A stretch of 64,000 bases of DNA from assembly GCA_034435455.1 (NCBI GenBank), contig DAOTXL010000002.1, positions 39,023-103,022 of the forward strand. The letters run 5' to 3'. A program made the position numbers and the translations under genes. Below, one piece after another: positions 2,878-64,000 of the stretch; position 1 is the stretch's first letter; each line of letters opens with the position of its first letter. Under the pieces are notes generated by a model that saw only the letters and a program-made list of their open reading frames with translations, searched no databases and was not told the DNA's origin. The stretch is from Anaerolineae bacterium (GTDB lineage: Bacteria; Chloroflexota; Anaerolineae; JAAYZQ01).

Positions 2878-3477
2878 TCAGGCGCACAAGGGTTCTCCTC
2901 CCGCGTTGCGCAGGCGTTCCGCCTCGGCAAAGCCGGCGGCCAGGGCTTTCAGGTTCATCTCCTCGGTGCCGGCCGGCACCCGGTCGGCCACCGCCTTTTC
3001 CAGGGCCTCCTTGCTGACCACCCCGCTCAACCCGCTCAAAAAGCCCAGGGCGACCATACTGGCCGTGATCCGCCGCCCGGTCTCCCTTTCGGCTATCTGG
3101 GTGATGGGCACGGCAATGGCCCGGTGGCTGGGCACCCGGCTGACGTGGGTCGAATCCACGATGATGCAGCCGTCGTCCTTCACCTGGGGGTAGAACTTGT
3201 CGCAGGCTTCCTGGCTCATGCACAGCAGCAGGTCGGCGGCCATGACCTTGGGGTAATCGATCTCCCCCCGGGCGATGATCACCTCGGAGCGGCTGGCTCC
3301 CCCCCGTGCTTCAGGGCCGTAGCTCTGGGTCTGGACGGCATTCAGTCCGTCATGCACGGCCGCTGCTTCGGCCAGAATGACGCCGGCCAGGATCATCCCC
3401 TGTCCCCCTTCTCCGGCCAGGCGCACCTCATATCGATCTTCCAGCGCCCGCCGGGCTGCCTCTCGTACCTTGTCCAT
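2878..3477 (-). CDS. 2-oxoacid:ferredoxin oxidoreductase gamma subunit (PorG/KorC-like)
   Basis: Strong family similarity (…GEGGQGMILAG…LGF…); ATG at 3477 with GAGGA 9 nt upstream (ORF track extends to TTG at 3486). Confidence 0.8.
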   Translation of the reverse strand: MDKVREAARRALEDRYEVRLAGEGGQGMILAGVILAEAAAVHDGLNAVQTQSYGPEARGGASRSEVIIARGEIDYPKVMAADLLLCMSQEACDKFYPQVKDDGCIIVDSTHVSRVPSHRAIAVPITQIAERETGRRITASMVALGFLSGLSGVVSKEALEKAVADRVPAGTEEMNLKALAAGFAEAERLRNAGGEPLCA

Positions 3478-3530
3478 ATCCTTCAATCCTCAGATCTTGT
3501 GGGATGGTTCACGGATCGGCAAAAATAAGG

Positions 3531-3650
3531 TGGACCTCACCCCATCCCCCAACCCCCTTCCCCTCCCCTCCGAATTCCGAATTCCGAATTCCGAATTCGG
3601 AAAGGGAAGGGGGCCAGGGGGTAGGGGTGAGGTCAAATCAACAATGTCGA
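3531..3650. repeat. Imperfect palindromic intergenic repeat element (copy A) with (CCGAATT)x4 tandem heptamer in the loop (3570..3599)
   Basis: Arms gacctcaccccatcccccaaccccc / gggggccagggggtaggggtgaggtc flank ccgaattccgaattccgaattccgaattcgg; reverse-complement matches copy B at 43581..43652 including flank tcgacaaTGTTgatttgacctc. Confidence 0.8.
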
Positions 3651-3651
3651 G

Positions 3652-4527
3652 TTAGAACCATCCCCGGCGCACTGCCCGCTTGCGCGGCAACGGCGCGCCG
3701 TGAGCCTTTTCGATCATCTGGTCGTACAGTTCGGTGTATTCCAACCTGTCCTCGTCGCGGAATATGCCGCGCACAATCTGGGTGGCCGGCATCTCCTGTC
3801 CCTGCTCGGCCAGTTTTTTCGCCGCCTGGATGGTGATCGAGTTGTCTTTGAGCTGGCGCATCATCTCGATGGGGGATTTCAGGTTGTTGGCCCGGCCAAA
3901 GGTGGTATGGCAGTAGCTGACCACCTCCAGCAGGGCAAAGCCGCGCTTGCGGATGGCCTGCTCCATCAGCCTGTCCAGTTCGGTCACGTGATAGACCGTG
4001 CTCCGGGCGACAAAGGAGGCGCCGGCGGCCATGGCCAGCTCGCAGATGGGGAAGGGCGGCTCGATGTGGCCGTAGGGGGCCGTGGCCGAAAAGGCCTGCA
4101 GCGGCGTGGTCGGCGACGACTGCCCGCCGGTCATGCCGTAGATGCTGTTGTTCACCACGATGGCCGTCAGATTGATGTTGCGCCGGGCTGCGTGGATAAA
4201 GTGGTTGCCGCCGATGGCCAGGGCGTCGCCATCGCCCATGACGACGATCACCTCCATCTCCGGCCGGGCCAGCTTCAGGCCGGTGGCAAAGGCCAGTGCC
4301 CGGCCGTGGGTGGTGTGCAACGTGTTGAAATCCATGTAAACCGGCATCCGCCCTGTGCAGCCGATGCCCGAGACGACCGCTACGTCGTCCTGGTTCAGTT
4401 CCAGCTTTTGCACCGCACGCAGCAGGCTGCCCATGACGATGCCGATGCCACAGCCGGCACACCAGACGTGCGGGAACTTTTTGTGATGGCGCAGAAGTTC
4501 GTACGTCCCCTGATCGTGTCGTTGCAT
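3652..4527 (-). CDS. 2-oxoacid:ferredoxin oxidoreductase beta subunit (TPP-binding, PorB-like)
   Basis: ORF 3652..4911 trimmed to ATG at 4527 (MQRHDQGTYELLRHHKKFPHVWCAGCGIG…GDGD…); AGGAAGG RBS; the 128-codon upstream extension is GC-rich read-through. Confidence 0.85.
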   Translation of the reverse strand: MQRHDQGTYELLRHHKKFPHVWCAGCGIGIVMGSLLRAVQKLELNQDDVAVVSGIGCTGRMPVYMDFNTLHTTHGRALAFATGLKLARPEMEVIVVMGDGDALAIGGNHFIHAARRNINLTAIVVNNSIYGMTGGQSSPTTPLQAFSATAPYGHIEPPFPICELAMAAGASFVARSTVYHVTELDRLMEQAIRKRGFALLEVVSYCHTTFGRANNLKSPIEMMRQLKDNSITIQAAKKLAEQGQEMPATQIVRGIFRDEDRLEYTELYDQMIEKAHGAPLPRKRAVRRGWF

Positions 4528-4538
4528 TTTTTTCCTTC

Positions 4539-5723
4539 CTATCGGGCCAGTGTCGGTCGGCGCAGCGAGGATTCGGCCTGTGGGGCGCGGATGGCATCCA
4601 GGATTTCGTCGGGGGTTACGAGCTGGCCATCGGCGCGGCCCACCCGCATCACCTTCCTGCGGCCCACCACCCGCTCCACCTCCAGCGCGATCTGCCCCAG
4701 ATTCATCTCGGCGACAATGACCCGCTGCACCCCCTCCGCCAGCCGCTCGACCACCGCCTCGGGGAAGGGCCACAGCGTCTTGAGTCGCAACAGCCCCACC
4801 TTGCGGCCATAGCGGGCCCGGGCCATTTTGATCGCCTGCCGCGCCGAGCGCGCCGTTGCGCCATAGGCCACCACCAGCACCCGGGCATCCTCGATGCCAT
4901 CTTCCTCCCATTGACAGATCTCCTCCAGGTGGCGGTCTATCTTGCGGAACAGCCGCTCCAGCCAGGGCTGGATCTCGTCCAGCCGCTCGGTGGGAAAGCC
5001 GCGCGGATCGTGTAGCAGGCCGGTGATATGATAGCGATAGCCCTCACCAAAGGGGGCTAACGGCGGCACGTCCGAGGGGGGGGTGCCAAACGGTTCGTAC
5101 CATTCGGGCGGCACGCCGGGCATCTGGCGGTTGACCCTCGGCACCGACTCGGGAGCGGGCAGCTCGACCTTTTCGCGCATATGGCCTACCACCTCGTCAG
5201 CCAGAAGGATGACCGGCGTGCGGTACTTTTCGGCCAGGTTGAAGGCCTCCACGGTCAGGTCGAACATCTCCCGCACCGAAGCCGGGGCCAGGGCGATGAT
5301 GGGGTGGTCGCCGTGGGTGCCCCAGCGGGCCTGCATCACGTCGCCCTGCGAGGGGCTGGTGGGCAACCCGGTGCTTGGGCCGGTGCGCATCACGTTGACA
5401 ATGACGCAGGGGATCTCGGCAGCGACGGCATAGCCGATATTCTCCTGCATCAGGGAAAAGCCGGGGCCGCTGGTAGCGGTCATCGCCTTCAGGCCCCCCA
5501 CCGACGCGCCGATCACCGCCGCGATGCTGGCGATCTCATCCTCCATCTGGATGAATTTGCCGCCCAACTTGGGCAGCTCGCGGGCCATGAACTCGGCGAT
5601 CTCGGAAGAGGGGGTAATGGGATAGCCGGCAAAGAAGCGACACCCGGCAGCCAGGGCCCCCAACGCACAGGCGTTGTTGCCCTGGATCAACCGGGGATTG
5701 GGGATGTCCAATGCGGTCGTCAC
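4539..5723 (-). CDS. 2-oxoacid:ferredoxin oxidoreductase alpha subunit (PorA-like)
   Basis: 394 aa, typical PFOR alpha motifs (GYPITPSSEI…TSGPGFSLMQE). Confidence 0.85.
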   Translation of the reverse strand: MTTALDIPNPRLIQGNNACALGALAAGCRFFAGYPITPSSEIAEFMARELPKLGGKFIQMEDEIASIAAVIGASVGGLKAMTATSGPGFSLMQENIGYAVAAEIPCVIVNVMRTGPSTGLPTSPSQGDVMQARWGTHGDHPIIALAPASVREMFDLTVEAFNLAEKYRTPVILLADEVVGHMREKVELPAPESVPRVNRQMPGVPPEWYEPFGTPPSDVPPLAPFGEGYRYHITGLLHDPRGFPTERLDEIQPWLERLFRKIDRHLEEICQWEEDGIEDARVLVVAYGATARSARQAIKMARARYGRKVGLLRLKTLWPFPEAVVERLAEGVQRVIVAEMNLGQIALEVERVVGRRKVMRVGRADGQLVTPDEILDAIRAPQAESSLRRPTLAR

Positions 5724-6043
5724 CGATCACCTCCTGCCGGCAGCACGCCCTGTTTGATCAACTCCTCCACCTCCTCCGGTTCCAGCCGGCGGACGGTGAT
5801 GGCCATGTCAGGGCAATGGGTATCGCACCAGTGGCAGGCCGTGCACCGCTCCAGATGGGCGATCACCGGCCGGCCCTGGCCATTCGCCTCGAACACCTTT
5901 TGTGGACAAAACTCGATGCACAGGCCACAGCCCTTGCACCAGGTGCCAAAGAGCGTCACGTAGCCGTGCGGGCGCGATGGACGGGCCTGAGCCTCTTTAG
6001 AAACTTGAACGGCGGACGGATCCGCCGTTTTCTCGGTCGTCAT
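5720..6043 (-). CDS. 2-oxoacid:ferredoxin oxidoreductase delta subunit, 2x[4Fe-4S] ferredoxin (PorD-like)
   Basis: CKGCGLCIEFCP and CTACHWCDTHCP motifs; 4-nt ATGA overlap with alpha start; RBS GGGAGG. Confidence 0.85.
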   Translation of the reverse strand: MTTEKTADPSAVQVSKEAQARPSRPHGYVTLFGTWCKGCGLCIEFCPQKVFEANGQGRPVIAHLERCTACHWCDTHCPDMAITVRRLEPEEVEELIKQGVLPAGGDR

Positions 6044-33691: not shown

Positions 33692-34009
33692 TTACCCCTG
33701 CATCCAGGCCGGGTTCCAGGGCTCATCGAGCAGGGTTACTTTGGCCTCCTTCACCCCCGGCACGGCGGCCACCGCCCGCCGAGCCTGCTCGGTGATGAAT
33801 CCGGCCAGCGGGCAAAAGGGCGCCGTCAATACCATCTTGACCTCGACGTTGCCTTCGTCGTCCAGCTCGATGTGACGAACCATCCCCATGTCCACCACGC
33901 TCATGCCGATTTCTGGGTCTATCACCGGCCGCAGGGCCTCACGAATTTGTGCTTCTGTTACCATATCACTCTCCTTTATAACTACCTCGACAATGGTGGC
34001 AAATTCCAT
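33692..34009 (-). CDS. DUF59 (MIP18-family) Fe-S cluster carrier/assembly protein
   Basis: …VRHIELDDEGNVEVKMVLTAPFCPLAGFI… DUF59 motif; start TGATG-coupled to OsmC stop (alternative ATG at 33964 with AAGGAGAG RBS). Confidence 0.65.
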   Translation of the reverse strand: MEFATIVEVVIKESDMVTEAQIREALRPVIDPEIGMSVVDMGMVRHIELDDEGNVEVKMVLTAPFCPLAGFITEQARRAVAAVPGVKEAKVTLLDEPWNPAWMQG

Positions 34010-42588: not shown

Positions 42589-42643
42589 GGTAGCCGAAGG
42601 CATTGCCTTCGGCTACCCTGAAACTTCGGCTACCCTGAAACTT
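42589..42643. repeat. 12-bp perfect GC hairpin (ggtagccgaagg-cattg-ccttcggctacc) followed by 17-bp direct repeat x2 (cggctaccctgaaactt) overlapping tauE stop
   Basis: Seen directly; lies between tauE (42642..43562) stop and rhodanese RBS. Confidence 0.7.
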
Positions 42644-43562: not shown

Positions 43563-43580
43563 ATTTCACCTCCTCATATA

Positions 43581-43652
43581 ACTCGACAATGTTCGATTTG
43601 ACCTCTCCCCTACCCCCTGGCCCCCTTCCGGGTTGGGGGATGGGGTAAGGTC
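43581..43652. repeat. Palindromic intergenic repeat element (copy B), same family as 3531..3650 but without heptamer expansion
   Basis: tcgacaatgttcgatttgacctctcccctaccccctggcccccttccgggttgggggatggggtaaggtcc; near-identical to reverse complement of copy A arms. Confidence 0.8.
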
Positions 43653-43771
43653 CATCTTGTTGTCATTAAGGCGTAGCCGCCGGTGGCGGACGCGAGGTCC
43701 AGGGTTCGCATCCGCCCATGCACAGGCAGCGGGTTAGCTGGCGATAACATCTTTGCTTCACCTTCCTGCCT

Positions 43772-62558: not shown

Positions 62559-62649
62559 GCGGCCCCTGTAGTGGACAGGACCTTAACAACTGAAGAGTGA
62601 TAGGAAGACAAGCGGACGCTTTGGGCCCAAACTCAAAACGTGAATTTAC

Positions 62650-64000
<1,351 letters not shown>

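Follow-up and report, generated by a model that had tools for sequence, protein, structure and literature searches.

An imperfect palindrome of more than 100 nt, its centre filled by four tandem CCGAATT heptamers, separates two genes of a 2-oxoacid:ferredoxin oxidoreductase operon in an Anaerolineae bacterium. Is it a mobile element, an RNA structure that serves the operon, a length-variable switch or an accident of sequence? The palindrome was noted in a 64,000-nt stretch of DNA (the window), and the original prediction likened it to REP sequences, to MITEs and to structural RNAs. Here, we report that the two copies of this element in the window are, with a probability of roughly 0.8, decayed and probably immobile members of an Anaerolineae family of non-autonomous DNA transposons (MITEs). 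The family is not described for Anaerolineae or Chloroflexota in the literature that we searched, through both targeted and broader repeat searches.

The setting is a run of four consecutive minus-strand genes whose NCBIfam matches identify them as the delta (5720–6043), alpha (4539–5723), beta (3652–4527, with its TAA stop codon at 3652–3654) and gamma (2878–3477, with its ATG at 3477–3475) subunits of a 2-oxoacid:ferredoxin oxidoreductase. Both genes that flank the palindrome therefore lie on the minus strand, which corrects the earlier description. That description had named them porB and porG: the junction is indeed a beta/gamma junction, but the pyruvate-specific name does not hold, as alpha alone clears a curated cut-off, that of a generic 2-oxoacid:acceptor oxidoreductase, and beta and gamma match best to 2-oxoglutarate or generic 2-oxoacid types. 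A near-consensus sigma-70-type site (6123–6096, minus strand; TTGACA, 16 nt, TACAAT, with an extended TG) lies upstream of delta and, from its sequence, is likely to be the operon promoter. Given this strong promoter-like site and the consecutive genes, it is reasonable to place the palindrome inside an operon, as had been proposed. The beta–gamma spacer measures 174 nt in the window. Its gamma-proximal part (3478–3525, minus strand) contains the gamma ribosome-binding site GGATTGAAGGAT and is found with identical sequence in relatives without copy 1 (L123, L129 and L126); on this comparison, it is native intergenic DNA and not part of the element.

The remainder of the spacer is the element, which we denote copy 1, a 126-nt segment on the minus strand (3526–3651) with borders set by an nhmmer profile and by the orthologous empty site of L123. 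Read in the direction of transcription, it opens with a left terminal inverted repeat, CTCGACATTGTTGATTT (3635–3651), that matches the left terminal repeat of the full-length copies described below. A 102-nt imperfect palindromic hairpin core follows, GACCTCACCCC...GGGGTGAGGTC (3533–3634), found both by an inverted-repeat search and by folding. The segment ends with CACCTTA (3526–3532), which comparison with the full-length consensus (...GGTCCAYCYTGNYNGCCATTTATGTTAATYTAACATTGTCGAG) and with the empty site identifies as what is left of an internal right-hand segment; nothing more of it, nor of the right terminal repeat, is present. On the other side, alignment to the empty site places the insertion target, CTAA, at 3652–3655 (minus strand), where it holds the TAA stop of the beta gene.

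The inverted repeat that had been described is real, although imperfect: its arms (3533–3564 and 3603–3634) are 32 nt each and 78% complementary. At the apex is the heptamer tract, (CCGAATT)x4 followed by CGG (3569–3602), which Tandem Repeats Finder scores as period 7, 4.9 copies and 96% matches. Of the four or five GAATTC sites that had been counted there, four are present (3572, 3579, 3586 and 3593), and a fifth is not. Folding, which had been suggested as a check, gives a very stable hairpin for the transcribed (minus) strand, at −87.8 kcal/mol against −62.3 ± 4.1 kcal/mol for shuffled sequences (z = −6.3; 0 of 200 shuffles as stable). The same fold overturns the idea that the heptamers sit in an open loop: they are self-complementary, pair with one another and lengthen the stem up to a 3-nt apical loop. 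A regex scan of both strands singles out the G-run arm on the transcribed strand, GGGGAGGGGAAGGGGGTTGGGGG (3546–3568), as the one quadruplex-type motif of the window in which four runs of four or more G are joined by loops no longer than 3 nt. Judged by sequence, the core arms have the potential to form quadruplex and i-motif structures.

Copy 2 lies on the plus strand (43582–43669, about 88 nt by nhmmer) and has a short core and a lost right end. Its left terminal inverted repeat, CTCGACAATGTTCGATTT (43582–43599), is directly preceded by ATAA and leads into a 53-nt short-form hairpin core (43600–43652) that lacks the apical CCCCTCTCCG...CGGAGAGGGG module. Copy 1 aligns to 43579–43654 in opposite orientation over 51 nt at 94% identity (E = 9e-15) and 25 nt at 96%, and its central 49 nt are missing from copy 2. 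A second, oppositely oriented copy without heptamers, as first reported, is thus present. The similarity common to both copies exceeds the palindrome: one flank includes CTCGACAWTGTT(C)GATTT and the opposite flank CAYCTTRTT. The neighbours of copy 2, a 54-codon open reading frame and a TauE-family gene whose ATG is 19 nt downstream of the element, are both on the minus strand, so the two copies are oppositely oriented relative to transcription. Neither a similarity search nor the nhmmer profile found copies beyond these two in the 64-kb window. A terminal-repeat-like match, CTCGACAATGG, with CTAC before it, occurs at 33986–33996 (plus strand), just upstream of the start of a minus-strand gene; it may be the relic of a third copy or a chance match and, as an 11-nt remnant at best, is not counted.

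A palindrome read from one assembly could be a chance structure or an assembly artefact, and two short-read Logan contigs do end inside copy 1. Such breaks are, however, expected of a dispersed repeat. An independent metagenome-assembled genome (MAG) of the same species (GCA_964559445.1; L003 and L001) contains both copies without a single base difference, the four heptamers included. Together with the significant match between the two window copies and at least 89 verified family sites elsewhere, this refutes both alternatives as the earlier account had framed them, and we consider such an explanation barely conceivable.

Those further sites define the family. A scan with a core pattern built on the C-run arm, covering one genome per prokaryotic species, returned at least 111 stretches, mostly in Anaerolineae MAGs; many of these family members are placed at contig ends. 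An nhmmer profile of 134 positions, built from seven full-length copies and run on the retrieved loci, recognized at least 89 distinct sites in at least 15 assemblies. The copy search that had been called for therefore locates the family in numerous assemblies of Anaerolineae and of other Chloroflexota. Among the matches listed, 36 of the 42 sites in MAG H23_320 (which has at least 42) and six of the eight in A05DMB24 bear terminal inverted repeats.

Full copies from A05DMB24 and H23_320 show that the intact element is about 134 nt long. Its parts are arranged in the order CTCGACAATGTTARATT, a hairpin GACCTCACCCCTACCCCCTGGCCCCCTTCCCCTCTCCG-NNN-CGGAGAGGGGAAGGGGGTTGGGGGATGGGGTGAGGTC, then CAYCYTGNYNGCCATTTATGTTAAT and finally YTAACATTGTCGAG, with a short, AT-richer segment adjoining the right terminal repeat. 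The terminal inverted repeats, CTCGACAATGTTARATT and YTAACATTGTCGAG, are 13–17 nt, and nine full copies have CTCGACAATGTTA... at the left end and ...TAACATTGTCGAG at the right end. Full copies are 128–135 nt long, apart from one of 153 nt and one of 250 nt that contains a nested insert. They are flanked by 4-bp target-site duplications, perfect in seven of the nine (among them CTAT, GTAG, CTAA, CTTG and GCTG) and with one mismatch in the other two. A tetramer of the form NTAN abuts 33 of the 44 terminal-repeat ends, and the stop codon of an open reading frame of at least 80 codons abuts 8 of the 44. Against this standard, both window copies are incomplete. Copy 1 corresponds to profile positions 1–105 of 134 (window 3651–3524, E = 3.3e-23) and copy 2 to positions 1–113 of 134 (E = 2.6e-19), so both lack the right terminal repeat; each retains a left terminal repeat and core, with no second copy of the target site. 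We infer the transposition history of these two copies from that of the family.

These properties are those of bacterial MITEs, of which Nezha in cyanobacteria, ERIC/YPAL, NEMIS/Correia, RUP and MITEAba12 are examples. Like them, the elements are small and non-coding (128–135 nt in full copies; 126 and about 88 nt in the window), are bounded, in full copies, by terminal inverted repeats with short target-site duplications of fixed length, fold as long hairpins, are co-transcribed with their neighbours and occur as many dispersed intergenic copies in both orientations, two of them oppositely oriented within the 64-kb window; their presence, too, varies between close relatives. They differ from these MITEs in that their sequence is unrelated to that of any MITE found in the literature searched, in the unusually G/C-pure C-run/G-run hairpin core with two conserved internal mismatches, and in that both window copies are one-ended remnants.

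Variation between relatives is clearest at the beta/gamma junction itself, for which we traced homologues of the gamma subunit to their contigs and compared the beta–gamma spacers. Among relatives with gamma subunits 89–97% identical to that in the window, the junction exists in six states. The spacer is 8 nt, without an element, where gamma is 96%, 95% or 92% identical (L117–L120 and L131–L132), and 10 nt, again without an element, where it is 89% identical (L121–L122). In L123–L125 (95%), it is 63 nt and consists of native spacer only; in the window, it is 174 nt and consists of native spacer plus copy 1. It reaches 192 nt in L129–L130 (95%), with the native spacer and an unrelated inverted-repeat element, and 499 nt in L126–L128 (97%), where a composite contains the same hairpin core with an element of about 190 nt nested in its apex. 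The 63-nt spacer, TAA-GAAAGTGTCAACCGG-TTTTTGCCGATCC...GAGGATTGAGGGATATG, equals the window spacer minus the element; the latter reads TAA-(CTCGAC...GGTCCACCTTA)-TTTTTGCCGATCC..., with the insert in brackets. Positions 3526–3651 are hence a 126-nt insert directly after the beta stop codon, and some 15 nt of native sequence have been lost there. Gamma retains its native ribosome-binding site unaltered, at a distance of about 40 nt downstream from the border of the insert. We considered whether the TTTTTGCCGATCC... that follows copy 1 is a decayed right terminal repeat, and rejected this reading because it is native spacer in relatives without the element.

As close orthologues have the 8-nt junction or the native 63-nt junction, copy 1 is a recent insertion. 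With family matches, terminal inverted repeats, 4-bp duplications and an empty beta/gamma site in close relatives, the suggestion of a mobile element is borne out. In the closest relatives, beta and gamma are only 8 nt apart and probably translationally coupled. Copy 2 offers no such clean empty site, because the closest relatives of its TauE-family neighbour (94–96% identical) have a different gene upstream; they contain no element there. The unrelated element in L129 (1345–1500) and L130 is about 130 nt long, GTCTGAAAAGCTTACCAC...GTGGTTTTCAGAC, and is flanked by a duplication of about 19 nt that comprises the ribosome-binding site and ATG, CTGAGGATTGAGGG(G)GATATG. In L119 (3100–3663; a 95% relative), 562 nt separate gamma from the next gene, compared with 46 nt in L117; the operon region has thus received a further insertion, in which the MITE profile gives no match.

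How might copy 1 have come to its present state? We propose that a DDE-type transposase, acting in trans and making 4-bp staggered cuts at NTAN targets, would move the MITE, and that in a genome of 64% G+C such targets would often be supplied by stop codons. The NTAN preference would offer a simple reason why MITEs lie exactly at stop codons in high-G+C genomes. A full element would have landed on CTAA or TTAA with the beta stop, inside the delta–alpha–beta–gamma operon, and a later deletion of about 50 nt would have removed its right end, the second target copy and the roughly 15 nt of native spacer, while leaving the gamma gene's own ribosome-binding site intact.

Insertion sequences of the IS5 group and of the IS701 type generate 4-bp duplications at YTAR- or CTAG-like targets, and the family resembles them in duplicating 4 bp at targets that have TA in the middle (NTAN). 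Unlike these insertion sequences, however, the family yielded no transposase gene or autonomous copy. No pair of terminal repeats 0.5–3.5 kb apart with matching duplication was present in the retrieved DNA or the window; searches of viral contigs gave 41 single, unrelated matches for the terminal repeat and two unrelated matches for the core pattern; and the full element had no match among plasmids. With no autonomous partner of the same terminal repeats in the retrieved DNA, the viral contigs or the plasmids, the assignment to a DDE-type transposase is tentative.

An insertion between co-transcribed genes could nevertheless have acquired a role. REP hairpins set the expression ratio in malE–malF, and the hairpin of copy 1 could in the same way have been co-opted as a structural RNA of the operon: a protector of the mRNA 3′ end, a site of processing or an attenuator controlling how much delta–alpha–beta is expressed relative to gamma. 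The extreme stability of the transcript hairpin would suit such a role, as would its position inside an operon with a strong promoter-like site upstream of delta and a U-rich run, UUAUUUUU, that begins 4 nt past the stem. That run is, however, mostly native spacer, and a terminator scan makes no call at copy 1; copy 2 has no U-run and lies the other way round relative to transcription. The closest relatives do without the element, their beta and gamma genes being 8 nt apart, and enzymes of the 2-oxoacid:ferredoxin oxidoreductase type need their subunits in equal amounts, which sits poorly with a device that would alter their ratio. Nor does Rfam recognize a family: the only match at the gathering score in the window is the 16S rRNA, and a permissive search on the element returned only sub-threshold eukaryotic miRNA-precursor hairpins, which signify a long hairpin and nothing more. 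With the element absent from the nearest relatives, oriented both ways relative to transcription and without an Rfam match at the gathering score, the structural RNA named in the original prediction is not supported, and we judge such a function quite improbable.

A plain intrinsic terminator was also considered and rejected, as the consensus scan calls neither copy on the transcribed (minus) strand; one terminator is called near copy 2, on the plus strand (43637–43658). On present evidence, the element is ordinary selfish DNA rather than a regulatory device. Copy 1 is probably neutral at the beta/gamma locus, and it may incidentally alter the stability of the mRNA or the extent of read-through.

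If copy 1 is a MITE remnant, its heptamers should be understood as a variant of the family's hairpin apex. Three apex types occur: the standard CCCCTCTCCG-NNN-CGGAGAGGGG with a variable loop triplet; the short form, seen in copy 2, L025, L060, L080 and L109; and the heptamer form. Beyond copy 1, the heptamer apex is found in at least five copies, three in H23_320 (L111, L066 and L039) and two in JGI metagenome contigs (L140 and L149), with two to four or more units that differ in orientation and in which CCGAATT is mixed with CGGAATT. Because it recurs in other copies, the tract is real and prone to expansion. A metagenome scan for the heptamer apex gave, among the matches listed, no orthologue of the beta/gamma insertion; the matches were mostly unrelated GAATTC repeats, and L140 and L149 were the only family members among them. 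The tract may have arisen as an apex variant in which CCG-AATT-CGG replaces CCGCNGCGG, a self-complementary unit that could then expand by slipped-strand or hairpin-templated mispairing.

The four tandem heptamers reported at 3569–3602 are identical in the independent MAG, so the idea that the tract is prone to slippage is supported between copies, where the unit number varies, but not at the copy 1 locus, where the two assemblies that span it have four units each. This bears on whether the tract could be a contingency locus, a phase-variable switch of gamma expression. Perfect tandem heptamers and a unit number that varies between paralogous copies are what such a locus would show. The tract, however, occupies a hairpin apex rather than a reading frame or promoter spacer; gamma still has a ribosome-binding site of its own, some 40 nt past the border of the insert; the same type of tract recurs in copies at unrelated sites; and, on the two assemblies that can be compared, the number of units at the locus is constant. 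We regard a switch as very improbable, and take the heptamers to be an expanded apex of the MITE.

The apex has accommodated other DNA as well. The nested element of about 190 nt in L126 (716–1216; also in L127 and L128), GAAGTTTGGCCTTTTTCAGA...GCCAAAGTTGAG, is likewise seen in L035 (1–20), L012 (3240–3330) and L066. Its junction with the apex is shared by two or more contexts, which would follow from the spread of a composite form or from a preference of this element for the apex as its target. A full MITE copy in L065 (246–495) has an unrelated insert of about 115 nt in its hairpin apex and is a further case of the apex as a hot spot of insertion or expansion. In L080 (1–230), three short-core hairpins follow one another in tandem every 70 nt, separated by an unvarying 15-nt spacer, AAACGCAACTTTCCT; as the spacers are identical, this is a minisatellite-like amplification and not a CRISPR array.

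On each strand of the hairpin core, the C-run arm comes first and the G-run arm second, and across the family the arms are never exact complements: two internal mismatches, CTAC versus GATG (TA/AT) and TGG versus TT, are conserved. In an alignment of 22 diverse copies, 95% of cells are paired, compared with 56–69% when the partner is slid by 1–3 columns. Five pairs have changed on both sides, a value reached in 1 of 500 shuffles, and most core columns are simply conserved.

Alternatively, the unit that moves or is maintained could be the C-run/G-run hairpin alone, a REP- or REPIN-like sequence handled by a structure-specific enzyme such as a RAYT or an IS200/IS605-type Y1 transposase; the MITE with its terminal repeats would then be only one of the vehicles to have captured it. 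In several assemblies, most copies have no terminal repeats: hairpin-only copies prevail in KM4338-54 (at least 15 sites) and H25_343 (at least 10 sites), and they turn up one at a time in MAGs labelled Chloroflexia, Caldilineae, Ardenticatenia and others; MAGs labelled Thermoflexus contain them too. Both internal mismatches are conserved, as in imperfect hairpins that are recognized by proteins, compensatory changes preserve the pairing of the stem, and at some loci the hairpins are arranged in clusters or in tandem (L027 and L080). Some of the occurrences across classes could be binning errors, however, since the MAG names KM4338-10 and KM4338-54 suggest one sample, and both window copies have the left terminal repeat of the MITE.

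RAYT-type single-strand transposition makes neither terminal repeats nor target-site duplications, and full copies of the element have both. REP sequences are palindromes of 20–40 nt with a GTAG or CGTC tag at one end, the mark of the large REP superfamilies (Di Nocera et al. 2013, PMC3733652). The hairpins share with the REPs and REPINs associated with RAYTs (PMC3733652; Bertels and Rainey 2011, PMC3116915) their palindromic form, their abundance outside genes, an occasional clustered or tandem arrangement and the stable stem-loops that arise in mRNA. The element is nevertheless much longer, with a core of 53–102 nt that starts with GACCTC and has no GTAG or CGTC head; we therefore do not count it as a REP or REPIN in the defined sense (PMC3733652), and an independent hairpin of that kind is an unlikely account of the window copies. 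GTAG-tagged REP palindromes do adjoin hairpin cores in mosaic clusters (L007, L013 and L093 in H25_343; L071 and L089 in H23_320); examples are GTAGGGGCAATTCATGAATTGCCCCTAC and GTAGGACAACTGCGAGCAGTTGTCCTAC, with sequences that differ from the core.

A second comparison is with the BoxC or TM_ECO triplex motif, defined by the pattern CCCTCNCCC-N3-6-GGGNGAGGG-N3-GGGNGAGGG, at which loci are unusually rearranged between strains (PMC4666352). The family resembles it in being made of dispersed intergenic G/C-rich imperfect palindromes with blocks of the types CCCTCTCC, GGAGAGGG and GGGTGAGG (PMC4666352), and the beta/gamma junction, with its spacers of six different lengths among relatives whose gamma subunits are 89–97% identical, recalls the rearranged loci. 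In contrast to that motif, the element is a two-armed hairpin of 53–102 nt bounded by terminal inverted repeats with target-site duplications. Membership was rejected, as the regex matches neither strand of the window nor the family consensus; it does match the unrelated loci L086, L199 and L247.

What the MITE reading leaves over is the core that stands without terminal repeats in many assemblies, which may have a life of its own beyond what the transposon model explains. It is conceivable, although we hold it to be rather doubtful, that the core is a distinct module present in much of the Chloroflexota, self-spreading or maintained, that destabilizes nearby DNA through apex expansions, nested apex insertions and flanking deletions. 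If so, instability driven by the core would explain the diversity of the beta/gamma junction between near-identical relatives, and an independent, structure-driven instability would add a Chloroflexota case to the question raised by BoxC and the triplex motif.

For annotation and assembly, the MITE family matters because its elements break short-read contigs and could be mistaken for regulatory RNAs or terminators. They also point to an active traffic of small transposons in uncultured Anaerolineae, and could serve as strain-level markers. Two further features of the window were recorded. A bacterial 16S rRNA gene (62645–64000, plus strand; 1315 bits) is cut by the end of the window; it could help to place the organism, whose protein neighbours all bear the label Anaerolineae. 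The short spacer between the TauE-family gene and a rhodanese gene contains a perfect 17-nt tandem repeat, CTTCGGCTACCCTGAAA (42607–42643, plus strand), in 2.2 copies with 100% matches.
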